Shown here: in pieces, positions 9,773 to 55,858 of the stretch
Numbering within the stretch: the stretch's first letter is position 1
Layout of the letters: each line of letters opens with the position of its first letter
Assembly: GCA_973895155.1 (NCBI GenBank)
Contig: OZ316894.1
Span: 6,222,134-6,286,133, forward strand
Source: Marsupella aquatica
Lineage: Eukaryota; Plantae; Marchantiophyta
Reading direction: 5' to 3'
DNA length: 64,000 nt
The notes under the pieces: generated by a model
Told to the model about the DNA's origin: nothing
Databases searched by the model: none
The model's input: only the letters and a program-made list of their open reading frames with translations
Program-made: the position numbers and the translations under genes

Positions 9773-12700
9773 CCATTAAAGCGAGTCATAGCACTGCATT
9801 ATGGCTTAAAGTTTTTGGACTTACCATCCTTATGGGGAATGTATTCAAGTAGCAAGGTGGCCAAAAAGACATGTTGTGTCCTGGCCTGTCACTTAGTCAG
9901 GGCCCTCCTTTGACACTCCCTATTAATTTGTCTCTCGATCACTTTCTCTTTGCTGCGCCTCTTTTCCCTTTGTCACACTGCCTTGTTTTTCCCGAGTTAC
10001 TTATGTCCCCAGTTCACTGTTCAAATATCTTAGTCAGGTAGATAATTTTATCAACATATTGTCATAGCTCGATTAGCTCCTTTATGACTAAGATCCTGTG
10101 CTACACTTAGATGAGAGTTCTTAGGTGTGAGTGGCCAGAACTACATGAGCTCTTCCATACCTTAGGGCTGTCTTGCGTGTGCAAGGTCTTCAAAAAATTG
10201 ACACTTACATGACCATGATTGTTGGTAGCTAGGACCTGTGACCTGCTCACACACTCTCATGTCCTTCTTTGTTGTTTCTTGCTCTTGATTCTATGGGGCA
10301 ATAAGCAGGAAATTTTGCAGTGTTGTAGTGGCAGGTTTTGTCTCATTATCAATTCAAAGGTCAGGACCCCCCATGTCGTGACCAGACTAGTTATGACAGG
10401 CTTGACCACCAAAGTGCTCTAATATAACGTGAGTCTTATTAATGTGACACCACATGACTTTACAGTCATGTATGAGTCTCCATAAGACATTGGAGCATAT
10501 TAAAATATATGTTTTATTGAATAGTGGATAGTCATAGTCATTCTTAGTCTAAGTAATGTAAATGACTTTGGTCCAACCACATCCATTGTAGTCACAAAAT
10601 TGACTTCAACATTTTCATTGTGGGCCCAACATGTGGCCCACAATGGTGACGGTCAATCATGTTGAGTGAAATGCTTTTATAACAAGGCAATGACAAATAC
10701 CTTTAATTTAGGGTCTGCATCTCGGATTAAATCCCTTTACTCCCACTCACTCTACAGCCCTCTGGCAACTTCCATTTTACCGTGGCCATATATCCGGCTG
10801 CCCCGGCCAACAACATGCAGTGTGGATATATCGGCGCGTGATTGGTTGCAATGTGAACCGTACCACATTTATGATTTTGTTGCGTAGGTCAGGGCCATAC
10901 CTCACTAAATGGCCTCATTGTGACCAAAAGGGTATAGGGTTAAATATCAATTTGTGGCATGCTCATATAAGGGTAGGTGTTGTCTTACTTCGAGTGTCAC
11001 TCAGTGTTTTGATGTAACACTATTCAATACCCAAAACACCAAACTAAAAGGGCCAAAAACAAATGGCATGCACACTTGGTCTTAGTGACCATTTAATCCT
11101 ACGTGTCTCTCAACATGCCGATCAACGGGAAGTGTGCAAGTTTACTTAGGGTCGACCCCATGTGCAGACGCAAAGGGATGAGACCTTAGGAGGACACAAA
11201 GTGTCAACTACTACCACCAGGGTTTAGGGTCTACTTTTTGCAAGGGAAACCAAGTGCCGAGCAGTCTGCTCCCAAGAATATACTTTTCCTCACTTGTTGT
11301 CGACTCTCGCACTCAGGTTTAGGGATTTGGCGCTTCTTGGAGGTAACCTTGCGGCTTTTTTGGTAACAGAGCAGGCGGTAGTTGGCATTTAGGGTCCTCA
11401 GGTTGGGGCGGAGATGTGGAGGATTGAGGCTGCTGCGCCCATACATGTTTTTCTTTCAATTGGTGCTACGATTGCTTGGTGACGGGAGGCTGTGGGATGT
11501 GTGTTGTAGCTGTTGTGATCAGTGACCTCCAGTTGGGAAGGACTTGCGAGAGCTGCGGTTGGGGAGGAGCTGCGGTCGGAGCTACAGCCGGTTGGAGGTG
11601 GTCGCAAGCTGGTAACAATTGGAGGGGTTAGTTTTCTGCAGCTCAAACCTATCCTTTTGTGCTTGTGGCCATGCTATCCTTTCTGCCAGTTCATGAGTTT
11701 GCTAGGGAGACTATGTATCAATTTTCTTCTCAGGAGGCGCTGAATGAGTTCTCTACCAGGGTTTGTCGAATTTGTTTACGGGTCCATCTAGTTGCGCCAT
11801 ACAGCTTAAACTTGTGTAAGCAACGCAAATCAGTTGCCTTATGCCTGTAGGATTGGGACCTAAATTTGTGAGAGCTGCAACATTGCAGGATTAGGGTCTG
11901 CATTTGCAACGCGATGACACTTGCAAGTTGATTCTCCACGTTCACAGAACTCCATTTTGCAACATCGCCCTTATCAATACTTTCACTAACTCTGGAATAT
12001 TATAGTCCACTTGGAATTTTGATAGTGTACTTTTGGAAAATTGAATGTTACTTTTTAGAAATTTGAAAACATAGTTTTTGAGTTTTAAATAAGGGTTCTG
12101 AACAATTCCAATTTTCTTCCGGATACTTCAGCACCAATTTTGGAAACTTCAAGTTGTGATTTGGTACAAACTTTTGAGACATAACATAAGAAAAGGGGCT
12201 TAGGTTCACACGTTGTTAACTTCATCCCAATGAGTTTTTTAATAGATAGAGACCAGCCACGAAAACCCACACGACAAGGGGGAACAAGCAGCCTCACACA
12301 CAACAAAGAACATGCACAGCATACCCCTAAAAGCCCCAAAAAGACGAGGGCCAGAGAGTCGCACAAGAGTAAAGAGTAAAAGCTCAACAACAAGAGTCAC
12401 CCTGACACCTAAGGGGCACGACGGAACAAAAGGTGCACTCAAAGCTTCAATGAAGAGTAACATATGATCATTAAAAGTGGGCGGGACCAAGTGTAACAAT
12501 CCAGAGGAGCATATAGTTTAGCAAGCAGTTTTGCAAGCTTTATCGATGCCTAGAATGATGCATACAAGAATTCTACATGTCTTGTTGTGAGGGAGGAGTA
12601 TGATAGACGGAGGACTTTGCACAAGCTGTTCATCCGCACTCGAGCGCGAGCCACTCTCCTCCACCAACACACGCAATAGGAGAAGGCATCGTGAGAACAA

Positions 12701-13799
12701 AGGGTCTCTATACTCTCTCCTCCCATCCCACACGTAGAGGGAGAAGCGTCGTGTGAAAAGAGGCTCCTCTCTGCCGAAGACCAAGTCGCTCCAGAAATAG
12801 AAGGGCAAAGAACAAGGGGATTGCAAATGAAAGAGCACCAACATCCTATTTGCATAACAAAACAACATTCCACATTTGTACACATAAAGATAAGCTTGGT
12901 ATATTCATAGGAAACATATGTGCCTAACAAAAATTCTGGTTGATGTCGGCGTAGGCATCCCTGAAATATATCAACCACCCATGCTCAGAAACACCGAAGC
13001 CTCCCAAGCGGAAAACACTAAGGCGGAAAACGCAAGCACTTTCTGTTCACACCTAAACATGATGCACGATCAACTAACAAATTCCTACGCGATGATCGCA
13101 TCCGCACAAAAAACAGCTCCAAAACACTTCCCGAGAGCTGACTCCAGAATGCCTCATTCAATTGTTCCAGGATGATGGCATCCACTCGTCGGAGTCTGCA
13201 TTATCGCTATCTAGAAATTCTTCCCTTGCCCATTCCTTCAGACTTCTCTCGGAGCTTCGTTTCTTCTTCAAAGGTCCGTAATACTCAGCCAAATGATCCC
13301 TCTTCCAACGACGCCTCATCTTCTGACATTCCTCCCGACGGATCCTCTTTTGTTGCCCCTCCGCGGCCTTTGTCGGCTTCTTCTCTTTCTCTTTCTGTTC
13401 CTCCTCCACCTCATCTGCAACAGGTGCCTGGTCGTTTGTCTTGTCATGACTAACCACAGTTTGGTTGCCAAGAGGAGGAATGGTTTCTGTTCTTGCAGCA
13501 ACTCCAGAGTCAAAACTATTGGATGGCTCCGAGCACACAGAGAAGTTGGACCGCTCCTCATTTGCATTCTCTGCCTGTAATGCTCTAGAACTCTTCTCCG
13601 CATGTAATGCCAAAGGACTCCTCACTCGTCTCCCAGGTGCCATTATGAAAGTTCAGGAAAATCACCACGATCCAAAATGGTTGTCAAACGCTCAATTTGG
13701 AAAAGGAAGATTTGATCAGAAGGAGAGAGATGTTGGAGACTGAGCCAGAAGTTCATCACAAAGCATAACTTGAAGGAGAGAAACAAGCCTCTCGAATAA

Positions 13800-14510
13800 G
13801 GGTGTGTGTGATGAGATTCGGGATTTTCAAGTCATAAGTTCATTAAGACATCCTACGCGAGCATCGTGTGGCACAATTATGATACAAAAACCCGTGACCG
13901 GGCACCACACCATCATTGTGGCCACAACAGACCCGAGCCATAGGTCGACATGCGCGCCATTGCAGTGAAAGTGAAATTCAGTCCAAGTACACATCTTTCA
14001 CTTTCCGAAGGTCATAATGATCCTAGAGCTGGGTAGTCTGGCCTACACGAGCCTCGTGCGGAAAGTAACTGGAACCAACCAGCTCCAACCTCGCCTATTG
14101 TTCTCCCACAGTCCTCAACCCGACAAAATACATTACGTGTGAATATGGGTTTGTGTGATGAGATCCGGGATTTTCAAGTCATAAGTTGATTATGACATCC
14201 TACGCGAGCCTCGTGTAGCACAATTATGATACAAAAACACCTGTCAGTTTAACCTCAATAACGGAGGAAATTGAGCTCATCCCAAACAAATCTCGTGATC
14301 CGGCACCAAACCATCATTGTGGACACAACGGACACGAGCCAAAGGTCGACATGCGCGCCATTGCAGTGAATGTACACACCTTTCACTTTTCGAAGCTCAA
14401 TATGATCCTCGAGCTAAGTAATCCGGCCTACACGAGCCTTGTGCGGAAAGTGACTGGAAAAAACCAGCTCCAACCTCGCCTATTGTTCTCCCACAATCCT
14501 CAACCCAACA
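13800..14510. repeat. Two imperfect ~350-380-bp direct repeats downstream of the transposase, each with two palindromic motif copies
   Basis: GTGTGATGAGAT.CGGGATTTTCAAGTCATAAGTT...CCAGCTCCAACCTCGCCTATTGTTCTCCCACA starts at ~13806 and ~14153. Confidence 0.85.
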
Positions 14511-14572
14511 ATTAGGACGTGCCGTGCATCGCCAATTGTCTTCCACGCGAGTCTCGCGTCGAGTTAAGGATA

Positions 14573-17032
14573 TTAGTTCTCCTCAATCGTTTCTGTAATG
14601 TAAACCTTCACACTTTCCAAAACTCTCGCTGGAACTTTTACCTTTGCTTTCGCTTTTGATGTCCATCCGGTGATGGTTGAAGTTGCAAGCATCCAATCAT
14701 TCGTGATTGGGGGAATGAGGTAATTGGGATCCCTTTCCCACGTTTGCTTTGAATTAAAGCAGTCCCGATATCTTTCTGATTCGGTTGCCAAACTATTGCG
14801 ATTAAGAGGGTGCCACCATTCAACTTGGAACTCTCCAACACTCGCGTTGTCGGTATCTCTTACGACACAATCGATTGCTTTTGCAAGCCAAAATTGTTGC
14901 GGAATTCTGGTTTCAAATTCATCGGTGGGTCGAATAATAACAAATGTATTCTTTTTAATATCTTCCAGAGGACTAAATCTTGACCTCTCACGCTTAGAAG
15001 GGTGTCCGACAAAGATTGTTTGCCTCTCTTCTTCATCTTCTTGAAGCTCTCTTTCCAGATTATGCATCACCCCGTTGTCTTCGCTTGGGTTGGTATCCAC
15101 ATTCTGACCATACTGACGATACCCAGTTCCATGGTTCGTTCGAGGCCAGAATCCATCAAGTAATGGATAATCTACCCCTGCTAGCGAAGGAGAGCAAAGT
15201 GTATCCTGAAACACAGAAACAATGTTTTCCCAGTATTGAATCTCTGGACTTCGGAGACGATATCCCTCCGATGTAACATCCTTCCATGCAGTCTTCAGCC
15301 ATGAGATATAATGGATCAAGTACTCCAAAATGTCATTCGCCCGCTTGTGAGAAGACTCCATCCGCTTGGAATATGGACGTCCAATTGGAAATTTGTATTG
15401 GTTTCTCTCTGAGTCAAACAACCAAATTGTTTGACCCTTTGTAGGTAGCCAAGACGTATCAATTTTCTCTCGATATTGGTAGACTGGGACATTCTCCTTC
15501 ATTGAGAACAAGAATTGAACAGGTGCTGATTGACCCTGGATCCTTTTGACAAATGGTCCTACATAAGCTTTGTAAGATGCAACTTCGCGGATGAACCTGG
15601 GAACCGGATGTTTCTTCTCGCACTCCCAAACCTCCGCCATTAAACCAAAAAAGGTGGTAAGCTCTCGATTGTAGATCCTTATCCCCACTCTAGAGAAGAA
15701 GGCATCCACATCCTCATGAGTGTGCCCGACCATCAAAAAGAAAAGAGTTACTGACTCAAACACTCCTTTTAGAACAAGCTCGCTATAGAAAGCCAGAACT
15801 GTCTGGTTCTTGTTATCCTTTCCCGAGTTATCAAGTTGAAGGTGGAGGTGTCGAGGAAGCGCCTTGAAGGGTAGGGATGTTGAAGACTCTACGCGACTCT
15901 CATGTGGCACATTATCACCAAGCCCTGCGAAGTGAGCGAGAGAGATCTTTTTGGTTTCGAGGTATCCTACCTCAAAGGCACGCTGATCCAAGAGGGATAC
16001 AAAGATTGGATCTGTGACGTCAGAGGTGTTGAGAGCTAAATCGCCGGTCTTATCTCCCACAAATGATTTGAGATCACAAAATAACTTTGCAAGTGAAGAG
16101 ACTGTAAAATCAGGATCGCTTGCCCACAAACCAGAAAGGGCAAAATGTGCATAAATTCCAGGCTCCCGTCCATGCGTTAACATCCCCGTCAGCGTCATTG
16201 GTAGCGGGATTGATTTGCCTCCTTGGCTCTTGAGTGTAGAAGTCATTTTAGGGATTCCGGTCTTGGCTTGATCCATTTTATCGTGAATCACAGACAAATA
16301 TTTGTCGGGCTCCTGGTCCGCTGCAAGTTTTGCTGCATAGTACATACTCCTGCGTGATTGTTGTTCCAATATATGCCGTTCGTGCTTTGCCTTGATTTCT
16401 AAAATCTTATCCACCCGTTTCTCCCCCCGAAGTGTTTCTTTAATGGTAGTGCAAAGATCGCATTTTGCAAAGTTGCTCCGATCTTGGAATTGGAAATTGG
16501 GGAAATATTTATCCAAAAGCTTGTAGAAGGTTGGGAGAGAGGGCGAATGAATACCCAGGTTTTTGTTAAGCTCGCAAGCCTCTTCAAAAACATCTTTTCT
16601 CCCGTAACTTATTGGAACCCTAAAAACAACTTCCTGCTTGCCTGAAACACCAATTTTGTGAAGATGTGGCATTGGTTCTGCAGATTTCTGCAGGATACTT
16701 TGAATTGATTCTGTGAACAACACAACGTAGTCTTTGGTCTTGATGGTCCCTTCATTCCCATGAACACCAACTTTTGCCCCCTCCATGTATCGTGAATACA
16801 TTGTGTAAAATGTTCCTCGAGAAAATCCATGAATATTCCAAAAAGCTTCCTTGCAGATCCTGCTTCCCTTGAATACAATCATGCCTGAGGCGATGGTTTC
16901 ATCGTCACGACAGTGAAGATGTGAGCACGTAAGTATGTTGCTCAACATGCGATAGACCATAGTACTCTTCCCTAATGTCAGTGACGGTCTCACGGAGTTG
17001 TCGTCGACAACAACTCTGTGAGCAACAATCAA
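14573..17032 (-). CDS. Sola-like DDD transposase core (DUF7869-type motifs)
   Basis: 819-aa ORF with C..C (AKCDLC), IHDKMDQAK, LQLDNSGKDNKN and FLMVGHTHEDVDAFF, giving an RNase H-like D-D-D triad. The N-terminal part continues upstream through frameshifts (16905-17231, 17283-17894). Superfamily assignment is from memory of motifs plus the 4-bp TSD. Confidence 0.8.
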   Translation of the reverse strand: MIVAHRVVVDDNSVRPSLTLGKSTMVYRMLSNILTCSHLHCRDDETIASGMIVFKGSRICKEAFWNIHGFSRGTFYTMYSRYMEGAKVGVHGNEGTIKTKDYVVLFTESIQSILQKSAEPMPHLHKIGVSGKQEVVFRVPISYGRKDVFEEACELNKNLGIHSPSLPTFYKLLDKYFPNFQFQDRSNFAKCDLCTTIKETLRGEKRVDKILEIKAKHERHILEQQSRRSMYYAAKLAADQEPDKYLSVIHDKMDQAKTGIPKMTSTLKSQGGKSIPLPMTLTGMLTHGREPGIYAHFALSGLWASDPDFTVSSLAKLFCDLKSFVGDKTGDLALNTSDVTDPIFVSLLDQRAFEVGYLETKKISLAHFAGLGDNVPHESRVESSTSLPFKALPRHLHLQLDNSGKDNKNQTVLAFYSELVLKGVFESVTLFFLMVGHTHEDVDAFFSRVGIRIYNRELTTFFGLMAEVWECEKKHPVPRFIREVASYKAYVGPFVKRIQGQSAPVQFLFSMKENVPVYQYREKIDTSWLPTKGQTIWLFDSERNQYKFPIGRPYSKRMESSHKRANDILEYLIHYISWLKTAWKDVTSEGYRLRSPEIQYWENIVSVFQDTLCSPSLAGVDYPLLDGFWPRTNHGTGYRQYGQNVDTNPSEDNGVMHNLERELQEDEEERQTIFVGHPSKRERSRFSPLEDIKKNTFVIIRPTDEFETRIPQQFWLAKAIDCVVRDTDNASVGEFQVEWWHPLNRNSLATESERYRDCFNSKQTWERDPNYLIPPITNDWMLATSTITGWTSKAKAKVKVPARVLESVKVYITETIEEN

Positions 17033-17894
17033 CCCGATAAAGAGTATCTATGGACACCCAAGACATCTTTTGATTGCGTCTTTTCTCGAGTCGGTTTCTC
17101 TCCTTCTGGTTTGAATCTTGAGGATTTCTTCGTTGATTGTTATAGCCCCTTTTTGGCTTGATATATGAGAGAATTCTAACTCCCTCATCGTTACCATCAT
17201 TCTGATCTAAAAGATCACTAAGACATTCCATTCCAGGCTCAATCCTAGTTTTGCTGATTGGCCATCGAATTGTGCATGGTGATCAGTCAACAAATTGAGG
17301 GAACATAACTTTTCCCAAGCCAGCTTCAATAGCTAGACTCAAAATATTCACACCAACATGATCTCCCGCATGATCTTCCCCAACTCGCTCGTTGTTAATG
17401 GACGCAAGAGGATGTGGGTTTATGATGCAACCTCTTGCGAGCAAGGTTTCTCCGTCGTCCGCATAGAGAAGGGCAAACTTTTTGAACCATGTGCTACGAT
17501 CTTTCAGATCCTCCGCAAAAACCTCTGTCCCCTCCAGTCTGGTGGCTGATTCAGAATTACCTTCAATATTGTCAACTGGGTCATCAATGACATAAGCTGA
17601 CTCTGTTTGACCTCCAAGATTCATGTCATTTGCATGGCGGACATCTTGCCGATCCCACAAAACAACGGAGTTCACCGACTCTCCTACTAGATCAGCTCCT
17701 GGATGTGGATACGGCAGCTGTGCGAGGTGAAAGAAAGCATTGTCCACCGCCACACTTATCCGTTCTGCTCCAAGCAACACAGAGTGGCAGGTGTCGAAAG
17801 GTAGAACACAAAAAACCTTTCCACCAGCAACTGGTTGTTCATTGATAAGCAAGTGAACGACTTCTCCAGGTAGAAGCTGCGTTCTTGAAGCCAT
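16905..17894 (-). pseudogene. Frameshifted 5' part of the transposase gene with two Tnp1/EnSpm-C-terminal-like (DUF8039-like) modules
   Basis: ORF 17283-17894 contains VAGG.V...CH...LG.....V.V......LPYP.....VGESVNSVVLW and a second partial repeat. ORF 16905-17231 contains CCSQSCC. Splice acceptor (TTTTTTCCTCAG, minus strand) at ~17903. Confidence 0.55.
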
Positions 17895-18049
17895 TTTGGA
17901 TCTGAGGAAAAAATATTACAACAAAAACATCTTTTAAAACATCCTACACGAGGCTCGTGTGAAAATCTCTAACTCGAATGTAAGCAAATATCACAGACCT
18001 GAAAATTCACCTCCAGTTTAAACAAGCAATGAAGAGAAATTTCTATTGT

Positions 18050-18830
18050 ATCTTAGACAAGGGGAACAACACGAGACTCGTGTAGACAATCAAACATCCA
18101 AAATTCAATAGAGATTACTACTGAATACACAATAGTAGGCTCTTGAAACTTCTACACAGAGATGGATATTCTGAAATGCGTATTCTTCTTAGAGAAACTT
18201 TCTATGGAACGTTGTATTTGGATAGACGAGGGGAACAACACGAGGCTCGTGTAGACAATCCAAAGTCCAATATTCAATAGAGATTACGACTGAATACACA
18301 CTAGTAGGCTCTTAAAACTTCTACACAGAGATGGATATTCTGAAATGAGAATTCTTCTTAGAGGAACTTTCTATTGAAAGTTGTATTTGGATAGACGAGG
18401 GGAACAACACGAGGATCGTGTAGACAATCCAAAGTCCAATATTCAATAGAGATTACGACTGAATACACACTAGTAGGCTCTTAAAACTTCTACACAGAGA
18501 TGGATATTCTGAAATGAGAATTCTTCTTAGAGGAACTTTCTATTGAAAGTTGTATTTGGATAGACGAGGGGAACAACACGAGGATCGTGTAGACAATCCA
18601 AAGTCCAATATTCAATAGAGATTACGACTGAATACACACTAGTAGGCTCTTAAAACTTCTACACAGAGATGGATATTCTGAAATGAGAATTCTTCTTAGA
18701 GGAACTTTATATTGAAAGTTGTATTTGGATAGACGAAGGGAACAACACGAGGCTCGTGTAGACAATCAAAAGTCCAAAATTCAATAGAGATTACTACTGA
18801 ATAAACATTAATAGGCTCTTAAAACTTGTA
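18050..18830. repeat. 169-bp tandem array (~4.6 units) in a predicted 5' intron of the transposase gene
   Basis: GAACAACACGAG at 18064, 18233, 18402, 18571 and 18740. Each unit carries an ACACGAG-N-CTCGTGT-type palindrome. Confidence 0.95.
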
Positions 18831-19019
18831 CAGTTAAACGACATCCCAATGGGAAAGACTCAAGCAAATACATTCACATACTGACACAATCACTAAAACA
18901 AAATTGAAAATGACAGGAGCAGTACCTGAAACAACAGAGCACGCTTTAACAAAAGTCCCACCTCGGACTGAAGGCACGAATGAGTCAGATCTCAAACAAT
19001 GACTTGCACGAAGTGGTCT

Positions 19020-19395
19020 GTCACGTTATATAGTGAGTGGGGGTGCGAGAATTTCAGACTTTCAACTCTACCAGATTGTCGTGTAGTACTTTTTTGTGGC
19101 GGCGTGGAGTGTGGTGAGCAGCCATTTCCATAAATGCAGATTGGTTTGGCGGCGGGTGGTGGTTCGCCATGTTAGTGACACGTCCTCCACCAGATCCCGA
19201 GTGTCAGGTTTGGCGGTCGGGTAGCGACCGCAATCATTGTTGCGACCGCAAGGGGTATATGTTGCTTTCCAGCTCGCTGTCGCTCTCATTCTCTTTCTCT
19301 GTCAATCACGCTCTCTCTCGCTCTCTCTCTCTCTCTCACGCTCGGCCCTCAGATTGTTTCACGCTCTTTCACGCTCGCCTCGGACTATAAAAGGA
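19020..19395. promoter_or_regulatory. Putative divergent promoter of the Sola-like element
   Basis: TATATAA on the minus strand at ~19026-19032 points to the transposase, and TATAAAA on the plus strand at 19386 points to the accessory genes. A CT-rich tract lies at 19313-19337. Confidence 0.45.
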
Positions 19396-20387: not shown

Positions 20388-20626
20388 AGTCATTTTTTGC
20401 GGGATCATTTACACACCAAAGAGGCCAGAGGTCTGATAGTCATTTTTGCGAGACCGTTTACACGCCAAAGAGGCCATTTTGTAAAGGATGTTTTGACATC
20501 ATTTTGTTTGTAATGAATCAACAGTTTTTCGGCTCACTTTATTTTCTACGCGAGTGTCGTGCAGATGTTTGACATATTTCTCCTTGTCTTCTAGGAGTTC
20601 GCTCTGTTTATTTCCGTTTTGACAGG

Positions 20627-43291: not shown

Positions 43292-46200
43292 ATGGGGGAA
43301 GAGGGTGAAGACATGGAGACAGACATGGGGCTTGGAGAGTGGGGTGAAGAGGAAAGATTAGATATGGATGGACATCCAGATGCAGGGGGCTCACAGAAAA
43401 ATGCACCTGTGCAGGATGCACAGGGCCCTGATCAAGTGCTAGGTAGGTGGGCAGCCAGAGAGAAATCACGTAATCCATACCCTAGAAGGAGCCAAAGTTA
43501 TTGGCAAGGGACGCCTGATGATTATGATGATGACTACGATGGAGCAGAAGATGGATGGGGTGAATATGAATGCCCAGAGCGTGGTAGAGATGGGTACAGA
43601 GGGCAATGGAAAGATCAGGAGGATGATTGGACAAGTAAGTGCTTTGTGCTAGTGATTTTGTGATGGTAGTAGAAATTGTAGCTCAATATGGAATTATCTG
43701 ATATCTAGGGCAAAGAGTGTATCTAACCGGTCCATGAGTGTGGCATGTGCCTGTTGGTGAATGCAGACTCTGATTGGGACAATCACGAAAACAACAAAGG
43801 CCATCCACGTTCAGATAGGAGGCAATCATTCACAGGCAGGAGAAACGGCCCTAATTCATCAAGACAAGGCAATTGGACAGATGGTCCAGAACCATCTATG
43901 CGCCCAGGGAGAGGTAACTTGGTCATTGCAAAATTGCTCTGAAGCTCAGTGTATATTTGGCAGCAAAATTTATGCTTCATACTTAAAAAATGGTTCACGT
44001 AAATGTGCAGGGACTCCACGGAGGTTTGCACAATGCGCTCTAGGCCGTGGTGCAGGCCGTGGGGGCCCAGGCCGTGGGGGGACACCAGGCCATGGAGGGA
44101 CACCTAGTAGCGCTTCAGGGAGTACCAAGGCAGGAGACAGTAACAAATTTGGTAAAGTAGAAGTGAATTCCGATGGTTGGATAACTCCCACATGTGATGG
44201 TAAGAACCGCTGGCATTCTAACTTGAGAGGAGAAGTATTGCACTGGTTAGATTTGAGCATTACAGAGTTTAGGAGTCAGAACAAAGCCGATTGGGCTACT
44301 ATTTGCAAGGACATTCTTGAACGGTGGGAGTATGTTGGTAATAATGGTAAGGGCCCAGTTGAAGATTGCATATCAGATTATGCAATGAGGATTTTGAAAC
44401 AAGAGAGACATAGGTTGAAAAGGATGTGGATAGACAATGGTTCTAACAGGAGAATGCCAGCACCCCCATCATTGGAACTGGATCAATGGACACGGTTAAT
44501 CAAAGGGTTCATGTCAGAGGCTGGGCAGAGCAAGAGTGAACTGATGTCAAATGCTCGAGGCAAAGTGAAACACCTTTCACAGGCTGGGAGAGGAAGTTAT
44601 GCTCCAGTGAAAGAACAACTGGTAAGGCATGTCTGATAGTAAGCGTAGCCTATCACTAATCATCTTGCTACTATTATTGCATTTTCATTGACAATCAACA
44701 GTTGCTTTAATTCATATGTATGTTGATGTGGCATACAGAAGAAATTGACAGGTGAAGAACCATCAGCACAAGAAGTGAGAGAGGAGTTCATGAAACAAAG
44801 GAGTGAGGTGACAAGTGTGACTTCCAAACAGGTGATTATGTTGTAATTCTGTGATGTTCGATAGCATCAGAAGGAAATGTAGTAGAAAGTAAGCAACCAG
44901 TTCTTGGGGACAGTTATCTGAGATATGTAAGTTGTGTGATTACAGGGAACTGTTACAACTCTTGCAGAGATGTGTGAACGGTTGAAGTCATTAGAGTGTG
45001 GACTTCCTCGAGTGGAAAGTAAATTGGGTGATCGTTTGGATATTTTGGAGGCATCTGTAGCAAACCTACTTGCATCAGTGGAATCTAATTTCAAGCTTGT
45101 GATTGAGAAATTGGGTGGTTCTCAGCCAAACAATGAGGGCAACCTTGTACAAAGTGTGCCCTTGTTAACAAAAAAGGGAATTGGCAAATCTGACACAGGT
45201 ATGGAAATGACACCGGCCCATTGTTCATTGTGTCCTATGTTCAAATATTAGAAGTGGGTTTTCATGAATTGAGTGAATGGTTTGAATGCAGGAAGAGTGG
45301 AGGCATCGAAGGGCCCTGTAATCAGTAAGCAGAAGGGCAAGAAGGTTGTTGAGATAGGTAACCTGCTATGATCCAGTAGATTACATTTGAAAAGTGCATG
45401 GAGTTTTGTGAAGCTTAAGCCGATTGGAGGTAATCTTTTCTGTAAGAACTGGTTGGATCAACTGGGATCTGAAGTGACATCATGATTAACTTGCTTCAGG
45501 TGACTCAAAGAGCAATAATGAAAAGGATGTGCCCAGTGCCTCAGTGACCATAGCCAAGGAGGTATCAGGTAAGCTGATGCTTTAAATTCCTCTATATGAA
45601 TGTTGAGAGACAATTCAATGGTTAATAGATTCAACCTGAATATTGTGGTGTGTTTATTGATCAGCAGAAGCAGACATGGAGGATATGGCAATGGCAAAGA
45701 AGGGGAAGAAGGTTGTTCATAATGGTAAGGAGATAGTGACAACTTTGTGGTTGGTGACATGTACATGTAGCACATGTGATGAGTGATTCACTTATGTTGG
45801 ACAATGGCACTGAATTGTAGTTGATGCAGAGTTGTCAGACTCTCAACCAAGTGGGAGCAGGGTGAAGCGACGTCGAAATTTGGGAGCAACATTGGATGCA
45901 AGTAAGATTGTAGATGCTTCAATTGAAGCAAGTACAATGTTGGCATATACTGAGATGATGTCGCAGGGAAATCCTACTACACAATCGGAAGTGTCAAATA
46001 TGGATGCAGATTCTTTGAAGAAGAGTGTAGCCAATTCTCGATCACCAGCACAAAACACTCGTGCCAAAGTCATGACTCGCAACCAAGGTATGAATAATGT
46101 CATGTATAAGCCACCCAAGAAAGCCAAGAAAAACAGCCAGGGTAAGGTGGAGGTGATAGCCATAGCAGAGCCAGTCCATAATCTTCAATCATGGGAGGAT

Positions 46201-46425
46201 GACTCATAGGTATGTGTGGGTACAGGCATTTTGTGACCGGATCATGCTAAATTCCATGGCAAAATGGTCCCCGATGACCATGTGGTAGTGTTGTTGACTA
46301 TAGTGATTGTATCTGATTGTAATTTGCCATTTCCGAATAGAGATGATGATCCACCTCAGGAAATAATTGCAGATGTAGTAGGATCTCTTGTGCTCTGGCC
46401 ATCAGAGTGTGTTAGTCTGCAGTGA
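43292..46425 (+). pseudogene. CACTA TnpA-like multi-exon gene (Ptta/En/Spm-type and Tnp1-type domains), degraded
   Basis: ORF 43761-44636 contains DQWTRLIKGFMSEAGQSKSELMSNARGKVKHLSQAGRGSY. The 3' exon reads CVGTG...FHGKMVP...VVV......LPFPNRDDDPPQEIIADVVGSLVLWP* with internal stops. Confidence 0.75.
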
Positions 46426-47194
46426 CTGAATGCAAGTGTAGATAGAACCATGTGAATTGTGTTACATTTTGACATTGCCTTGGAAAGATCCAAGAAATAT
46501 CTGTACCAATTTTTCCATTTGGTAAAGAGGATGACGGATTCGTTATCATTATGTGTGACATGTATATATTTCTGAATTCTGTGTGTATGTATGAAACAAG
46601 TGATTGATGTCAAACTATGGCTGTAAGGTGACCATTGGATGATACTAGAATCTGTTTTGTATCATTTCAATATTAGTGTGTATGGTAGTTTCATGCTTTG
46701 TGACCTTATAGAGTGAGTTCATTTACAGTACACAAAAAAACATGAATGGAATGTCTTATTTGTGCACATTCCAAGTAGTATAGTGGGGTCTTCATCACTC
46801 ATTTCGAGTTGACATGAAAGACTTATACATACCCCACTAAGTATCTCCTTTAGTCGTTTTATAGACCCACAAAGTAAACTTAAAGACTACCCTCCATAAC
46901 CTGTTTAGTCCTTCCCAACAACTCACCATCGCACCCCTTAAAAGACTGAAAATGACTCACCAAAGCTACCCAAACAAAGACTACAATAGACTGAAAATCC
47001 AGTCTGTTAAACGACTCGTGAACCAGTTCTATAAAGGACTCAGTTGATTATAGTAACAAAACATACGACTCACAGTCCTATAAAGGACTGGAGTCCTATA
47101 AAGGACTGGAGTCCTTCCCAGTCATTTCCGAGTCCTATACGGTACTACATAGTCGTTTAATGGGGTCTAAATACCCCCCGGTTTCTACTAGTTG

Positions 47195-48174
47195 CTCGCG
47201 TCTGCTGATCCTCCTTTTGATTCGGCTAGCTGCAAGGAGTCAATATTGGCATCTCTAGCCATTGTTGATTTGACCCATACTGGAAAACCGGTTTGGATGT
47301 AGTCCAAAATCTTGAACTTCTTGAAGATCGTCGTGAATATCCCAACAAATGATCTGGTAACAGTTGTTTTTGTTCGTCCTGGTATTATTCTTGCAAGAAT
47401 AATTGAAGCTGTTCGAGATCTCCCGGAGAACTATAATGCGCACCTTGAATATGGTTCGTTCATGAGGAGTTCTATGGTTAATGCTCCTTCGCAACACATG
47501 AGAGGCGATGCGGACATGGTTCTTTTCCTTGGCGTCTCCCAAGATTGGGTTCTTGACTGGGAAAAGCATTTCAAGGATTTTACCGGTCACTTTGTGTTGG
47601 AGGAGTCCGACCTCGAGGAGACAATCAAGCCAGTCGAGAGGATTATTCCGATATTTCGAAGGATGATATGCAGGAGAAAAAAGGGACACATTGATCTCAC
47701 GACTTGAAGGCCTTGTTCCTTTCAAATTGACGACTGGACGGCCATTCACATTGAATATTAAGCCCAGTCGCATCCTACAGAGTTTTATTCATGCATTTTC
47801 TTCGAGGGAGGAAATTGTCCTGGATTTTTTCACAGGAGGGCAGGTACTGAAGAATGCATTGATGCTTGAGCGTGAGTGTTTTTCATTCTGCTCTGACCGT
47901 GAGGATGTCTCTGACCTCACGGCTTATGCAGAGAATCTTAAATTGTTAGTTCCGGTTGCACAGTTTGCCAAATCATTGTGGAAACCTCCTGGCCTTGAAG
48001 GGAGTTCGACTCAGAACTCCAATGCTAGTGGAGCAAAAGAGGGCCAGCATTATCAGATTGCCGGTACAGTTTTACATTACGCCGGGGTGGAAGCGGAGGA
48101 AAAGTTTCTAAGTTCCATTGGGGAGATGAGTATTGGTCCATCAGTCGTTCCAATTGCAAGTCGCGAAGGATTTC
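47195..48174 (+). pseudogene. Accessory gene segment 3: amino-DNA-methyltransferase-like (beta-class motif order), degraded
   Basis: DPPF at 47207-47218 (motif IV-like). KPSRILQSFIHAFSSREEIVLDFFTGG at 47760-47840 resembles KP..L...LI...S..GD.VLDPF.GSG (motifs X and I). One stop (~47300) and one frameshift (~47700). Confidence 0.55.
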
Positions 48175-51100
48175 TGTCGCACCCCTACCCTGGGCCTTAA
48201 ATCCGGGTTAGTGTCGTGGTGCGACCTCGACCACCAGTAGGGGTGAGGGTTCGGGCAAGGAGGTGTGTAGTGACCTTCAATAGCCCTAAGTCGGGCTAAG
48301 CTGCTATACTTACTGGTATAACACTCGCATAATTCGTACTTGTCATAGGTATATTTATTTTCCACCGCTGGAATTTTCCCTCAGTTAGTGACGCGGACTA
48401 ACTCCCGACTTGGGGCTTTTCAAGCCATCGACGTGATAGGACCTTGTGACATGCAATGAGTGGCAATCCCTACCATTAGTCCGCACCCGGTACGTCCCTT
48501 AAAATGGCGCCTTTGCCCGGACAAAGCATACACACAACACCAGTTACTCTCAGAGACATTAAGGGGAAAAGACTACATTTACTTAGCGAAGCATCAGTTT
48601 ACATGGTTGACTCGACTTCAAAGGGGGTCAGCAGGCCCAACGGCAGTCGATGCCCAGTCTCTACGAGGCCCTGCCTCACACTTGCCCAGCAAGCTCGACT
48701 CTGGCTCTCACTCCTTGGTACGCTCTGACCCTACTCAGGCCGGGACTCCCCGTGCCTCGCCTTTCTTCTGCTGAGATAACTAAGCCTTCTCCCCCTTCCC
48801 ATCGCGGAAGGGGAAGCCTAAATACTACCATAGCGGAAGAGAACCGGAGGATACTACCTTCCGGGGTACTACCTACTGACTAACTAACTGCTGACTACCG
48901 GTCGCGCTGTACTGACCGGTTGACCGTCGACTACGAGTGTGCCAACCGGAATGGCAGCGGCCAAGCCTATTGACAAACTCTAGTCCGTTGATGGACTCAA
49001 TCCTACGTTGGCTGATCCTAACTGACCGGCCCTAATTCTTCCTACTGCCGCTAATCAGTGCCTAATGACAGTCATTCTGTCGTTACGCCTAACTAAAAGA
49101 TGCCGCTGACTTAACCGCCTCGCGCGGCGCCTGCTTCTGCCCTTCGCTAACTACCCCTTTCGTGTGTGTAGTGGTTGGACCAGGGCTGGTCCCCTTGTCG
49201 GGGCGAGACCTCGAGCCGCCTTGATCAGAGGTGGGCCCAGGTTTTCCCCGCTGGAGGACGAGCAGGGTGACGCGGTCCTGCAAAGCCTTGTTGTCCCGTA
49301 ATGCTTCCTCCGCCTCGTTTGCAGCTTCGTCGGCTTCAGTCTGGAGCCGCGCCACCTCCAAGTTGAGCTGGTCGATGGCGTCGCGATGGACCTGGTCCTG
49401 CGCTAGCAATTTATCTCGTTCGGCAGAGAGACTAGCCACCTGTTGTGCTGCCTGCAGGAATTGTTTGTTGAGGTCGGTCAGGCTGGTAACCCGAGCCAAA
49501 GATTCTGAGCGTAATTGAAGCACGGTGTCGTCCAGCTTCTTGAGTTTGGCCTGCGCTCCGCTTAACTCTTGGGTTAGTCCGTCCCTCTGTTCAACAGTGC
49601 GGACTAAATCCTCACGGCGGGTCGTTGCCTCCTCCTCGAGGTGCTCTACCAGCATCTGGAGACGCCCGATCTCATTCCCCTTCGCCATGAGTTCTTCTTC
49701 CAAGCGGCTGACGATCCGTGGTTGGTGCTCTAACATGAAGAAGGATGGTTGAAAGTACGCCGAGACTTGTTGTCCGATGTATGTCGCCAACTCCCCAGAC
49801 ATAGTCTGGCTAAACTTCTGGACCAGGTCGTAGGCCATGGTCCCCGGGGCTACTTGGTAGTCCTCCATCCTCTCGGGTACCGGTGGTTCCTCGGCAGGGG
49901 CAATGAGCTCCTCCGTAGTCAGCGCTGGGGAGGGGAAGGTTTCTTCAGGTGGTGGAGGGATTGGGGGTGGTTGTACTGCAGGTAGCGGAGGCTCAACGGA
50001 AGGAGGCGGTGGAATTTCCACAGGGGGCGGTTGCAAAGTATTAGTCGGGGCTTCCGGCTCGGGGTTTGTCCGAGGGACAGTAGTTCGCGTAGTCGGGGTT
50101 GCCTCCTCTGGGGCGGGGGTGACATTACCCGGGGCTGAAGTGGCCGTATTCTTTCCTCTGGCCTCCCGCCGTGCCTTGTACCAGGCGAGGATAATGGCGA
50201 TATGACTCCCCAAGTAAGTCTTCCCTCCAATAGCCATACCACCCTGAGCCCGCTTCAGCTCCCCCGAGAATCTTCGGTAGAAGAATTGGGCCCAGTTTCA
50301 TCGTTTGTACTGTTCCACCTGCACTATCGTGCAGAGGGAAATCTCGGATCATGGCTCAATCATGTGTAGGGTAGTCCGTATGAAGTTAAGCCGCTCCATA
50401 CAGGTTAAGTTGGTGCACGCCCCCTGCTTGTATCCGTTGTCCGTCTTACCCTCGGGTTTGAAGTGCCGCGGCGTATACTCCTTATCCCAAATTCGGATTT
50501 CCACCGGCACCGGCCCGGTTGGTAGGCCGAAAATTTGCGTTAACCGATGCTCCGTGAGTGATAAGGTCTGCCCCGAAACCTTGGTGGTTGACGCATCAGT
50601 GTCGAAATTGGAGATGAACTCACAAATCTCCTTCGGGCCGGCGGCACACGGCCTCCATAGTAAGTGGGCGAACCGCTCCAACTGATGCTCCTTGAGATAG
50701 TCCGCATGTTCGAGTTTCTTGATCGCGATCTAGACTACCTCGGGGACGCGGATTACCTGTAATAAGTTGGACTTCGGGTTATCCGGGGGCCGTCAGGTCT
50801 GGTTGGTCGGGGGGTTTGCCGGGGCAGGCGCAGGCGCGGCGTCGGTCCGTGTTGATTCGGGGGCCATCGTAGTCCTTGACCGCTTACGAGGACGCTATTC
50901 GAGTTGCAGACTAGCTCGCTCGGAACCCAAAGAACACTCCGCGTTGATTACTAGACGGACTTGGGACTGGTTCGGCGGTACTCCGGTGGTCATCGGTTGA
51001 GGCGCTGGGGTAGCCATATCCCAGTTGAAGGCGTTGGAGCTTTCCCCGAGGAACGTGAGATTACGCGCCGCTTCCCATTGTCTGCTGATGTCTTCTTGGC

Positions 51101-52012
51101 GCTTTTCGGCTGCGATCTGCTGGTCTAGGTACCCCAGAATCTTGTCGAACTCCGCTTGAGTAAGCCGCTGGTTGCCCTTCAGCTTAAAGAACTTAGCTGG
51201 AACCTCAAGAATCGCCTCTGCTACCGATCTAAGCCCTTCCTTGCTGAGATATAGTTCGGTGATGTAGTCTCGCAGCTCGTTATAGCTAGAATCCCTGGTG
51301 ATGGCTGTCCTTTCGCAATTAACCAGTGCTACCTTGGTTACCAGCTTTGCGTACCTTCGTTCGTAAGCGGCTTTCTAGGGGCAAGAGTACCAGTAAGTTT
51401 CGGAGAACTTAGCACCTACCTCGCCAAACAAGGTCCAAAATCCCAAGGCGATGAGGGTCATACTAACCTCGTAGTCCGGTTTGTTGCGTCCACGTTCCCA
51501 CCTGGCTGGTCCTTTTACGCGGAGGCCTCGCTCGTCCTGACTAAATCTTGCCACATTCCGCTCTTCTCCCTCGATAATTTCCTCGTAAAGGTCGACTGGA
51601 TTCAATCAAAAAGGCGAGCGGATGGCAGCGTCCGTGAATTCCAAAAAGGTAAACGTGAGCGAATGGCCCGCAATGCCATCGGCTCCTCTCTTATGGGGGT
51701 GCCCGGACGAGCCCGAGCGTGAGAAGGTCAGGCCGTTTGGTCATTGATAACGAGCTGAAGTCGGCGTCTCGGTCCAAGCGTGATTCTTCTAACTGATTTT
51801 TACTCCGCTGCCGCCACCGTACCTCGGTCATGCGTAATAATCCCTTTCCTGAACTCGTAATTATTCGGTTATCTTAACCTACTCCTAATCTAATCATAAT
51901 GGCAACTTGACGGCTATACGTGCTATTCTACGCTATGGCTACGGTCCTAATGACCGTATAAGTCCTAATCTACGACCTGGGTTCGGTCAAGTGACACGTT
52001 ACCCGTGTCACA
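48175..52012 (-). mobile_element. Giant solo LTR 3 (3838 bp, TG...CA, TSD ATTTC)
   Basis: ATTTC|TGTCGCAC at 48170-48182 and GTGTCACA|ATTTC at 52005-52017. Removing it restores the reading frame REGF|PLVMAE. Confidence 0.88.
49089..51605 (-). pseudogene. Degraded LTR-borne gene homologous to those in solo LTRs 1 and 2
   Basis: Fragments 51375-51605, 50349-50681 (FAHLLW...EICEFISNFD...SLTEHRLTQIFGLPTG...DNGY...CT...ERLNF) and 49089-50237 (Pro-rich region plus coiled coil). Confidence 0.72.
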
Positions 52013-52017: not shown

Positions 52018-52670
52018 CTCTTGTAATGGCTGAAGGAGGTTATGGTTTGGCAGATAATTCTGAAAACTTACAGGCGGGCACGGGGTTGATTGCATTCAAC
52101 AAAAATCTGGAAGATGTTGTGGATGATGTCTCCCTACACACGTATCGTGTAGATCCTCCAGGGTTAGAGTGCAACAGAGGTGTTGAGCAATCTCTTCTGG
52201 TTGATGCTTTAGTTCTTCGAAGTGGCCCAATTTTTGATGATTGTGAGGCAAAAAATACACTCGAGGATGTCGAGAAGGGGGTGGTGGATTGTGGACCCTT
52301 AAAAGAGATTGTTGTGGAGGAGGTTGGGATTGTGGAAAAAGATCACACTCCGATTGAATTTCAATGCGATGACAATGTTGACTCTCGTAGCACTGAAGTA
52401 ATAGGAGAGAATGATAACTCATTTTCTCTCACAGCAAATCCAGAGGTGTCAGAGAGGCGAGTCGATCGTGCGGAGGCAACCAATGAGGCAGGTGCCAATT
52501 TCCTCTCTCTTGTCTCAAGTCATAAAGTTCTAAGCATAAACAAATGTCCTCTCCCATCTCCGGATCCAATGGATAACAAAATGAGGATTGACAATTGCCT
52601 CAGTGATGTTTTGGATCAGGATGCGGTTCTAGTTAGGACTAATGGGTGCCTAATAACTCGTGGACAATGA
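52018..52670 (+). pseudogene. Accessory gene segment 4 (acidic linker)
   Basis: ORF 52005-52670 continues segment 3 in frame after the LTR is removed. Confidence 0.55.
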
Positions 52671-52785
52671 TTTCTGCGCAAGACGCGTGTAGAGGGATAC
52701 AGACGGGGTATTTGATTTCAAGTGGTCTTTGGTCAAGACTGTTGCAATGACTAACCATCCGGACTCGATATTTTTATGTTTGCAG

Positions 52786-53770
52786 AGTTTGTTCCCAAAC
52801 TCCACTAAGAGATCAAGCGAAAGCTCTTGATTTTTTACCTTAATAAGGTTTGTTTTGATTCCGTAAAGAGTAAAAGCTCCCGGACCATTTTGGAGGCTCA
52901 CATCTGTGAGGGGCGTTCACTGGGGAAGACGGGGCGGGAACACATTTATGTATGTGGAGCGTCCAGGACTTCACAAATTTTTACAAGTGATTTTCAAGTA
53001 TTATGATGTCGCGATATGGACTTGCGCGGGAAGGCCGAGAACAAATGAAATGATGGATCTTGTTTTCAACGATGCTGAACGAAAGCAGTTCAAGTTTGTA
53101 TTCACCCAAGAAGAAACGTTTGACACTGGCTTTTTGAGGTCAGATATTACGGATGGGAAGGCAAACATACTTCTCAAGGAAATCCAAACTGTTTGGGATC
53201 GTTTTGGCAATAGATATGGTCCGACAAATACTGTTCTCATTGATGACTCTCCTCTGAAGTGTTTCGCGAATCCAAATGTTAACACGTTGTTTCCAGTTCC
53301 ATTTGTTCACAACATGGGAGGCAACACTTTTCTGATGGAGATATTGCTTCCACTTCTTCAAAGAATGCACAATGCTTTTGATGTAAGACACTTTCTGAAT
53401 GTTAACTACCCAAAATGGTCCGCCTACAATAAGGGTGAAGCCCAAAGGAGGCATTGTGATATCTTTGCAGGACTCACTCAAGCCTGGGGGCACCGCGTTG
53501 CTGGCATCGTCGATAATTTCACTGTCCTTGATCACTCGGCAGACGAGATTTCCTGGGAAGTGAAGCATACCGTGCAAAGTTTGCCACCGGTGCAGGATAT
53601 GAGTGACCGTGACATCAATTCAATTGCTAAAGGTCTACTTGGAGATGGTTATTCCGGCCTTGCAAAATAAGCGGCAATTTGTTTGGGAAGTCCTAAAAAC
53701 TAGGGACCTTACTTCTAAGTTTAGAAACTTGTATCCTAAAGACACTTGCAACCGAGATAGAAAGCTTGTA
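52786..53770 (+). pseudogene. Accessory gene segment 5: FCP1/NIF-like HAD phosphatase domain, degraded
   Basis: Acceptor TTTGCAG ends at 52785. KRKLLIFYLNK (~52815) is a decayed KKLLVLDLNG-type motif. ORF 52906-53670 contains VERPGLHKFL....YDVAIWT, LLKEIQTVW and NTVLIDDSPLKCFANP. Confidence 0.75.
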
Positions 53771-55858
53771 AGTCAGGAAGTAGACTTACTTGCTCAAATA
53801 TGTTTTACAGTAGCAACACACATTCAATGATCGTTATTTAAAAATTTGGAGACTTGTAATATTGAGGGGAGGCCTATTACAAGTAAACAATTGTTATGGA
53901 CTTCTGTATGGTTCCCGTTAGTGGGTGACAATGAAAATGTGACATTACTCATGTGACTATTCTCCACCAAATTCGTACGCCAAAAATGTATTTTACATGG
54001 ATTTGGAAATTTCAACTGGTGTTTAGGAAACTTGAAAGAGTGTTCTAGAAATTCCAGCTCCAAGTTTTGGAAACTTCATTTAAGGTTGTTGGATAATGTA
54101 TTTATTTAATTTGGAAATTTTACCAAGCCACTTTGGAAAAAAGAATTTCCAGAATTAGTGAAATCACTGATCCTTGCTTCATTGCTGATTTGTCCTTGCC
54201 CATAAAAGTACTTATATTCTTTGAGCTGCAGTTGGGTAGGTGCTACGACAGTTGCGGTTGAGGAGGAGCTGTTCGCTTGTTTGTTCTTTCAAGTTTTGGT
54301 GGCTGTGGTGTTGAGCTTCTCAGGAGGGCAAACAACTGCCCTTTTTTTGGAGCTTTGAAATAGGTAGGTGATCTCCCTCCAATGTCAAGGTTGCATTGTC
54401 GTTGCTTAGTTCATACCCAATTCTTTTTCTTAAATCATTTGAGTGTGTTTGTACCTGCATGCGGTCAGACGTTGTTTGCAAGTTGTGAAAATTCTGTGCA
54501 TAACTGCTGCTTGTCTATACTTCCCTTTTGTTGCATCACTGCCCGCATTGCTCAACTCTAATCCCTGCTATGTTTGTTCCTCTGGTTTGCTTCATGTGGC
54601 CACACAACTCAGCAGTTTGTATTTGTTGTTTCTTGTCCATGGATGTATAACTTCACATTGACTTACATGTCTGTATTTCTGCCCGACCCTTTTAGATTTG
54701 GAGAGGAGACAAACAAGATTACCATTGTTCATTGTGCTTTTTTTCTCAATTGCTTAGTCGTTTGCTTTGTTATTCTTGCCAATATCTTGCTGTCGATAAT
54801 TGTAACTGCTAAAGTCTGGTAATTGGTAATTGGTATTTCATTTCATTTGTAGTTTGTTTCTCTGTTTGTGCTACATTGAATGATCTTGTTGATTGTTGTG
54901 TGTTCCGTCATAGTTCCTGTTTTTAGATATTTGTTTGTAGAACAATTTCCGATAACACAATTTAGAGCCTTTGCTAAAATAATGTGGCAACTACGTAATG
55001 GCTGAATATGAATGTTTCCCTTTGCCCTCAAAGCATGTTGCTAAGATTGACTAGCACATCCCATTATTTAGCCATCTATAAGCTCCTTACATTGTTTGTC
55101 TTTTGAGCAATGTTGGTGAACTGAGCTCTTGCGTTGCCTGAGCTGCTGTGTTTGCTGAGAAGCTCAAAGAGTTGCGGTCAAGGAGGGAGCTAAAGGCAAG
55201 GACAAGTTGCCGTTGGGGACAACCTGTGTCCAATGCACGGTTGTAGCTCAATCAACTACAGCCAGTTGGAGCTACAGGCCGGTTAGTTTTCTGCATCTTA
55301 AACCAAAACCATGTTTTGTGCTAGCTGCCAACTACCACACAAGATCTGGTGCCATTTCTTGTTGGTGCAACGTCACATCGAGTCTTCAGGTACTATCCGA
55401 TCCTAAAGGGCTTCCAACAGGGCCAGCTGTGACCAAAACCCATGTATTGTCTCCAGCACTAGAGCCCCAATGTGGCTGGAATTGCATTTGTTCTATCCTC
55501 TTACATTGAGTAGCATATGTTTTGACTTAAACTTGATTTTGAATGTGGCCTTTCGTATGATTTTTTGCCGACACATCGTCCAAGTCTGTCACTGTGTTGG
55601 TTGATTTTTATTGGTTGGATTGGCAATTTGCCCTTTCTTTTAGTTTAGTTTGGGGATGATGTCTCAACCGTGCATCAATTTGTTCTTTGTGCTATGAACT
55701 CTGTGATGGATTGTTGTTGCTCACCCCTCCTACACATGAAGAAGGTTGACACCAGTGATTCATTTGTATGAGTAATTGGAAGTCTAAATATGTTATCGAC
55801 CATGGAGGATTTCTTGTTTTTTTTGTTTACTTAGTTTGCAGCTCAGTTCAAACTGCGA

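Follow-up and report, generated by a model that had tools for sequence, protein, structure and literature searches.

A giant, probably Sola1-type transposon of the liverwort Marsupella aquatica with a ParB-like, methyltransferase-like and phosphatase-like accessory gene and its own palindromic sites

A locus of the liverwort Marsupella aquatica raises the question of what a giant DNA transposon does with a second gene whose product is predicted to combine ParB-like, methyltransferase-like and phosphatase-like domains, and with the many copies of one palindrome found in the same element. The window analyzed is the whole stretch of 64,000 nucleotides at positions 6,222,134 to 6,286,133 of contig OZ316894.1 (forward strand; assembly GCA_973895155.1). 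The element takes up 42 kb of it (11973..54171), and its own sequence without the nested inserts comprises 14,915 bases (~14.9 kb). It is a broken copy of a multi-copy family of cut-and-paste transposons. The answer proposed below, tentatively, is that the product of the second gene (the cargo) binds the palindromes of its own element.

The element is bounded by 25-bp terminal inverted repeats (TIRs; left, 11973..11997 on the plus strand; right, 54147..54171 on the minus strand) which pair at 21 of 25 bases. Directly outside them lies the target-site duplication CCTT (11969..11972 and 54172..54175). Both repeats and duplication had been recognized in an earlier, sequence-only reading of the window; CCTT on either side was read at one copy, the one in the window. 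The minus-strand DDD transposase of that reading was also found (14573..17894). Its frame at 14573-17047 (-) matches Pfam DUF7869 with E 7e-38 (130.6 bits vs a cut-off of 26) and carries three acidic motifs, at 16285, 15838 and 15727, which we take to resemble the motifs of Sola transposases. The 5' part of the gene sits in other frames, past a stop and a frameshift. At the N-terminus (17286-17894, -) two similar stretches presumably recall a domain associated with Tnp1/En/Spm; no Pfam or PHROG match was obtained for them. The element is likely of the Sola1 type, a placement made by analogy because the best match of a parallel element of the brown alga Ectocarpus, Sola1-1_Ec32, is a Sola1 labelled PPa. 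A supplement row gives Sola1-1_Ec32 a 4-bp duplication and Sola1 as best hit (PMC12477816). Sola2 elements also have a 4-bp duplication, and some carry Fanzor cargo (PMC3627910).

Other copies were sought in public sequencing runs. Four runs from two organisms contain 56-66% of the words of the 3' end; run X5, with just 6% of the words, was used once. The stretches compared were 33300-53299 and 52500-54600, i.e., the 3' part and the right end. Contigs stop exactly at 54171 in all four runs (depths 227, 163, 656 and 1,026), and contigs that continue into the flank of the window copy have depths of 40 (X1), 18.5 (X2) and 71 (X4), contig depth not being equal to copy number. Beyond 54171 the loose ends agree at 0.53-0.59 only (at least three contigs in X2, at least five in X3 and at least three in X4), which points to several different flanks. 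One contig of 1,148 bases (X1) runs from the interior of the NIF domain of the cargo to the right TIR. Together, the contigs ending at 54171 and the contig joining domain and TIR establish a multi-copy family in which the cargo is physically linked to the right TIR. The sequence-only reading would have been at risk from relatives that do not end at these repeats; contigs do end exactly at the right one, amid varied flanks. Wherever the runs cover these positions, the majority allele lacks the stop at 52806, the additional base at 52879 and the tyrosine of the NIF motif, so these three lesions are private to the window copy. Its pseudogenization, already noted earlier, is apparent from stops and frameshifts set against majority alleles with an open frame.

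Internally deleted derivatives were also observed. One skips 418 bases of the methyltransferase-like region (47455-47874), with a depth of 1,016 in X1, and is also present in X5; another, in X4, has a joint 47731 -> 53091. Some contigs match no more than the terminal 40 bases and diverge before 54132-54133. These may belong to related or non-autonomous families having the same TIR.

The cargo gene is located on the plus strand, divergent from the transposase gene, and is interrupted by three nested inserts. Insert 1 (22200..32028; TG...CA ends, GGAAT duplication) and insert 3 (48175..52012; TG...CA ends, ATTTC duplication) were removed in silico; excision of 9,834 and 3,843 bases, respectively, preserves the frame exactly as stated in the sequence-only reading, and the empty-site joint of insert 3 occurs in two of four runs. 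Insert 2 is a CACTA element (33587..47193) whose junction had been left unresolved. It is now settled by an empty-site joint 33580 -> 47193, across which the frame continues, in three of four runs (X1, X2 and X4; not X5). The rebuilt model spans ~1,857 codons from the large exon onward (~1,860 aa or more), in agreement with the 1,800-1,900 aa estimated before. Two likely upstream exons (19497-19563 and 19884-20278, +) with a likely coiled coil have GT-AG ends at inferred splice sites that preserve the frame; they are likely to begin the cargo or else to form a small gene of their own.

The large exon opens with a conserved domain of ~200 aa (20595..21250, +), an addition that the earlier reading had overlooked and that is recognizable from alignment of homologous sequences. 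A profile of five homologues recovers the window frame with E 3e-5 (2.7e-6 in a second round), while a single-sequence search missed it. No match was found for this domain in Atlas, Pfam, PHROG or PDB. The label 'BAH domain', attached in UniRef to one model from the liverwort Riccia, was dropped, being without Pfam support. A low-complexity linker follows, first acidic and then Lys-rich (21251..22199, +), which resumes at 32034-32269.

The next domain (32270..32846, +) is predicted to adopt a ParB/Srx fold, with S-G-Q-H-S in place of GERR. The structure model of 32270-32851 has a pLDDT of 90.5. ParB, Noc, PadC and sulfiredoxin account for all of the best ten Foldseek rows (best E 3.1e-4), and the top rows of VIA-align are PadC (Z 8.4, rmsd 3.9 over 118 aligned residues) and KorB (Z 8.3). 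Matches to viral structures are mostly ParB-like and weak. The ParB/Srx-like motif of the sequence-only reading is thereby upheld as a predicted fold. At the active-site region, 54 aligned rows are nearly uniform (H102 in 54, G100 in 52, R130 in 52, N152 in 53), with a nearly invariant Arg, Ser and Asn beside SGQHS. No Pfam ParB family was detected in any of 81 homologues at E 0.05; there was one DndB match (E 0.04). A likely intron comes next (32847..32948, +; donor approximate), at which many homologous open frames terminate and which holds a palindrome site at 32863. It is followed by a conserved, likely helical region (32949..33580, +; one stop, one frameshift), a candidate DNA-binding domain. 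By eye, this region may resemble the DNA-binding helix-turn-helix (HTH) domain of ParB.

A beta-class amino-methyltransferase-like domain (47193..48020, +) contains one stop and one frameshift. A relative from Riccia was chosen for folding because the window frame is broken. Its model (pLDDT 72) matches M.RsrI with E 7.8e-9 and CcrM with Z 15.5 (rmsd 4.0, 215 aligned residues), and its motif order is permuted, IV before I, as in beta-class enzymes. The window was linked to this relative by a profile (E 4.8e-13, among 4 sequences) and by tblastn. Pfam N6_N4_Mtase scores 19.1 bits, below its cut-off of 26.7, and PHROGs and NCBIfam gave weak methyltransferase matches and nothing else. The earlier assignment to the amino-methyltransferases thus stands as to fold, and not as to the catalytic motif. 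All motifs quoted in that reading are present in the sequence, but DPPF (47207) had been misassigned: it lies 20 residues ahead of the motif-IV position and is not conserved. At that position the window has DLTH (47267), Riccia D[LV]THP in 35 of 40 pattern matches (DFAR and DLAR in two more models), and the fern Adiantum DTTH; [DN]PP[FYW] was absent from all 43 homologues checked. Motif I (DFFTGG, 47823) reads DFFSGG in 66 of 79 pattern matches, one of them FSGGG; it departs from F-x-G-x-G, being one residue shorter than in M.RsrI in the loop that holds S-adenosylmethionine (SAM). At the end of the next strand, where an acidic residue has a role in SAM binding, none was aligned, the aligner having placed a gap there. 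Motif IV retains its first Asp across lineages, and motif I its two glycines.

With D-x-T-H at motif IV and a SAM loop one residue short, self-marking by methylation, as proposed in the sequence-only reading, is unlikely. The simplest reading of these motifs and the model is that of a conserved pseudo-enzyme, for which METTL14 offers a parallel. As liverworts and a fern share this loss of motifs, it is probably a function other than methyl transfer that has been conserved. The inactive methyltransferase domains of DIRS1 are a comparable case (PMC4738411).

Past an acidic linker (52018..52692, +), in which other copies differ in sequence after 52666, the protein ends with a NIF/FCP1-like domain of the HAD type and a C-terminal tail (52788..53671, +), whose open frame is restored by majority alleles. 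The domain exceeds the Pfam NIF cut-off (E 1.9e-15, 57.4 bits vs 21.8), as its earlier designation would lead one to expect, and its nearest solved relative is UBLCP1 (E 1.6e-7). The DxD motif is Y-L-N in the window and D-L-N in the majority allele. It reads D-x-E in 33 of 34 pattern matches, and D-L-D is intact in one model from the lycophyte Diphasiastrum, so that phosphatase activity may differ by lineage. FCP1/SCP enzymes act in transcription, and the added NIF domain thus points to transcription.

Liverworts, a lycophyte and a fern all have relatives of the cargo. Clustering at the 50% level leaves 81 relatives of the ISGQH domain; 30 were looked up, and 10 of these came with a species: Riccia sorocarpa (6), Diphasiastrum complanatum (2), Calypogeia fissa (1) and Adiantum nelumboides (1). 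The Adiantum model joins the ISGQH domain, the methyltransferase-like region and NIF in a single chain in this order; one Riccia model has the ISGQH domain plus a weak N6_N4_Mtase match, and in one Diphasiastrum model NIF directly follows the ISGQH domain. A profile of the methyltransferase-like region recovered 107 proteins, every one from Riccia; they are spread over eight contigs (5-56 Mb), and 21 of the proteins have a precomputed NIF domain. Because the query was rich in Riccia sequences, this number tells of copy number and not of range. Two metagenome scans found no relative, tblastn against phages and plasmids had no match, and nothing emerged among longer proteins when the middle of the methyltransferase-like region was used to search for homologues. 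A second Riccia lineage (P0066, P0074, P0076) has SGAHS in the ParB-like domain, a more decayed methyltransferase-like region and models without NIF. A quick tree of 49 rows, which placed the window beside Calypogeia (SH-aLRT 81, unstarred, one very long branch), was not used.

The palindrome CTACRCGASNSTCGYGTAG (19 bp; consensus built from the sites themselves) occurs at 20 sites with up to 3 mismatches within the 14,915 bases of the element, slightly more than the 18 or so counted earlier, vs none in the remaining 49,085 bases of the window and none in 100 first-order Markov simulations. Merging duplicated units leaves 14 independent sites. On the inferred gene model, coding sequence makes up 66% of the element, yet 18 of 20 sites are non-coding (binomial P 3e-7), as are 12 of 14 after merging (P 1e-4). 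Five sites (13853, 14043, 14200, 14428 and 14543) lie in 13853..14561, four of them in duplicated units of 350-400 bp, and a weak one at 15889 is inside the transposase gene. Between the starts of the transposase and of the large exon of the cargo there are 11 of 20: seven between the divergent genes (17944..19086; five of these in a 169-bp tandem array at 18054-18832), three in a likely upstream intron (19621, 19715 and 19767), and one directly before the large-exon acceptor (20546..20564). In addition to the site at 32863, two weak ones (52134 and 52674) fall in the acidic linker. No site falls within 1,856 bases of the left TIR or 1,455 bases of the right TIR. For imperfect palindromes in general there is no such enrichment (38 in 14.9 kb vs 112 in 49.1 kb). 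In their placement the sites resemble the motifs of VANC, and to this extent the parallel to VANC proposed in the sequence-only reading holds.

Under the explanation considered best, though held at somewhat less than even odds, the accessory protein would bind the palindromes of its element through its predicted ParB-derived part, as a scaffold rather than as a methylating enzyme, and keep both genes usable, with a VANC-like effect. A dimer of the ParB-like domain and helical region could recognize the two half-sites of a palindrome, as ParB does at parS, and a nucleotide switch may allow the protein to spread along the element. The methyltransferase-like fold may have been retained as a module that grips DNA or reads bases, without methyl transfer. 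The NIF domain might contact a phosphorylated partner, e.g., the tail of RNA polymerase II, with catalysis reduced or absent in some lineages. The outcome would most likely be protection from silencing of the VANC type, the direction of regulation being a proposal. Scaffold self-recognition is favored because of the site counts (20 vs 0), the non-coding bias, the VANC-like layout and the fold matches to ParB, Noc, PadC and Srx, and also because the ParB-like active-site region is conserved, the strong match to the methyltransferase fold goes with altered motifs in window, Riccia and Adiantum, and the same idea has been proposed independently for algal elements. A bolder and unlikely version is that of a eukaryotic ParB/parS system in transposons of liverworts, lycophytes and ferns, in which a nucleotide-gated clamp would load at the palindromes, spread and license its own element, with a dead methyltransferase as reader of modified bases and a phosphatase for the polymerase II tail. 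Several points weigh against scaffold self-recognition. The ParB-fold scores are consistent yet modest, and the family reads SGQHSxxA where ParB has GERRxRA. With the arginine patch replaced in this way, a CTP clamp cannot be taken for granted. Profile-profile comparison with bacterial ParB (13, then 12 sequences) did not find the HTH, nor did it find the N-terminal positive control, and thus had no power. The methyltransferase fold was modelled on the Riccia relative and not on the frame of the window, the equivalence of motif-IV residues depends on strand position in that model and on sequence alignment, and a single species, Riccia, supplied most of the motif counts. CpG o/e does not separate the element (0.73) from its inserts (0.55-0.92).

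Binding of the palindromes could serve transposition instead, with the accessory protein coating or bridging the 15-kb element and aiding end pairing or the timing of excision. The element is long, its TIRs are short and sites are spread along most of its length, and bridging, condensation and spreading on DNA have been described for ParB (PMC7333895); yet the sites stay clear of both TIRs and crowd upstream of genes and in likely introns, and for a NIF domain a role in transcription is a better fit than one in pairing ends. A helper of this kind is improbable. A self-repressor is a further candidate, and a doubtful one: KorB-like binding of palindromic operators near the two promoters, with the phosphatase-like domain damping transcription, would limit copy number. 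SCP phosphatases are recruited for gene silencing, KorB is the second VIA-align row and tied with the first, and the 11 sites lying between the two gene starts would suit operators; plasmid ParB, moreover, silences genes adjoining its sites (PMC7333895). Set against this, the cargo family has reached high numbers (the 107 Riccia proteins) and the site pattern is like that of an activating system, VANC; neither point is decisive. Equally doubtful is the view that the transposase or a host factor binds the palindromes while the cargo acts elsewhere or merely rides along. Transposases can be sequence-specific activators of cognate copies (10.64898/2026.08.24.746577), a finding that also counts against the scaffold; the DNA-binding domain in the cargo is just a candidate; and insert 1 has an unrelated palindrome array of its own, so that such arrays do not require this cargo. 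The order of domains and the invariant residues have, however, been kept between liverworts and a fern, which would hardly be expected of a mere passenger, and in a red alga ParB-like accessory genes stand beside inverted-repeat arrays on unrelated transposases (10.1101/2025.02.11.637652). Lowest in probability, and very doubtful, is an active N6-adenine or N4-cytosine methyltransferase marking its own element, the version of the sequence-only reading. It can draw on the beta-class fold and motif order, on the retained Asp and glycines and on algal relatives predicted to methylate (PMC12477816); the missing [DN]PP[FYW], the unconserved DPPF, the short SAM loop, the lack of an aligned acidic residue (at a gap) and the sub-threshold Pfam score all speak against it.

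Among the remaining features of the element is a small basic/acidic open frame of ~160 aa that starts with ATG (13158..13646, -), possibly a third gene or a 3' exon; it matched no Pfam family. The flanks of the element do not fuse into a single open frame. Rfam gave no match, and a bacterial promoter scan, not relevant to the element, stayed at chance level. The CACTA element holds a further TG...CA insert (35844..40506; 5-bp duplication), by far the deepest of the three TG...CA elements in the runs. These three (22200-32028, 35844-40506 and 48175-52012) have 5-bp duplications, no internal pair of long terminal repeats (LTRs), and minus-strand proteins related to one another (tblastx E 2e-29 to 6e-8) with no Pfam family above cut-off; they are possibly giant solo LTRs with genes of their own. 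Insert 1 contains ~11 tandem units of 116 bp (28396-29622). Every unit carries a 29-bp palindrome that is nearly perfect, ACATTACTAGCGC...GCTAGTAATGT, and the array is bracketed by 65-bp inverted arms (26852-26916 and 31066-31130). The stretch 26852-31130, which bears no relation to the 19-bp site, is possibly another nested element that has binding sites of its own. Similar retrotransposon-like stretches recur in the left flank (11195-11312) and inside the CACTA insert (33967-35300), which indicates nesting deeper than three insert levels. Outside the element, a host phosphoinositide phospholipase C gene (3834-7800, +) has EF-hand-like and PI-PLC-X matches, and integrase remains are found at 60461-61502.

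Accessory genes combining ParB with methyltransferase on giant transposons, so far predictions from algae, are hereby extended to land plants, and the Riccia genome holds about a hundred copies of the cargo. As the candidate target is precise (a 19-bp palindrome at 20 mostly non-coding sites), self-recognition can be tested directly in transformable bryophytes. If binding and spreading prove true, the system would be a second solution, unrelated to VANC, to the same problem, and possibly a tool to target an entire locus.

The statement in the sequence-only reading that no Sola element with such cargo is known was mistaken. Sola1-1_Ec32 (21.5 kb) encodes on the opposite strand a 1,104-aa protein with ParB-like and N4/N6 methyltransferase domains, for which self-modification has been proposed (PMC12477816). 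By that description the window element is alike: it too is giant and pairs its transposase with an opposite-strand gene for ParB-like and amino-methyltransferase domains. They differ in that Sola1-1_Ec32 is from a brown alga, is described with two domains and has a 282-bp TIR with AACCG termini, whereas the present element is from a land plant, encodes ~1,860 aa or more with added N-terminal and NIF domains, and has a 25-bp TIR. Its mapped dispersed palindromes and degenerate methyltransferase motifs also set it apart from the published description of Sola1-1_Ec32, a comparison made with that description and not with the Ectocarpus motifs. The literature search, which did not bring up the Ectocarpus paper either, found no example from land plants or with a phosphatase; Repbase entries and supplements may hold more.

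The Plavaka accessory genes PAG2 and PAG3 of the red alga Bostrychia also belong to a giant DNA transposon with a ParB-like accessory protein by inverted-repeat tandem arrays, N6-methylase cargo and a proposal of self-recognition. Differences lie in the EnSpm/Plavaka transposase and in the fusions, one gene joining ParB to a 2OG oxygenase and another the methylase to a SET domain, with no phosphatase (10.1101/2025.02.11.637652). VANC of VANDAL transposons is comparable as an accessory protein beside the transposase, with element-specific motifs in introns and intergenic DNA, partly in tandem repeats. Its host is Mutator-like, its motifs are non-palindromic, of 8-9 bp and in one orientation, and its function has been shown experimentally (PMC5735166). 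No homology to VANC turned up, no search aimed at VANC having been made.

With bacterial ParB, Noc and KorB the cargo would share the predicted fold of the N-terminal domain, followed by a conserved, likely helical region, and dispersed sites of two-fold symmetry. Bacterial ParB has the arginine patch GERRxRA and nucleates on parS via its HTH domain (PMC7333895); in the cargo SGQHS takes the place of the patch, the HTH is only a candidate, ParA is missing and there is a fusion to three other domains. The predicted fold and the order of motifs IV and I are those of beta-class amino-methyltransferases (M.RsrI, CcrM, rotifer N4CMT and Marchantia DN4MT1), which unlike the cargo have DPPY/SPPY instead of D-x-T-H and an unshortened SAM loop; DN4MT1, of a two-gene host family, keeps TSPPY (10.1101/2021.02.12.428880). 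What is new is thus the occurrence in land plants, the phosphatase and N-terminal domains and the conserved loss of methyltransferase motifs, in an overall design already known from algae.

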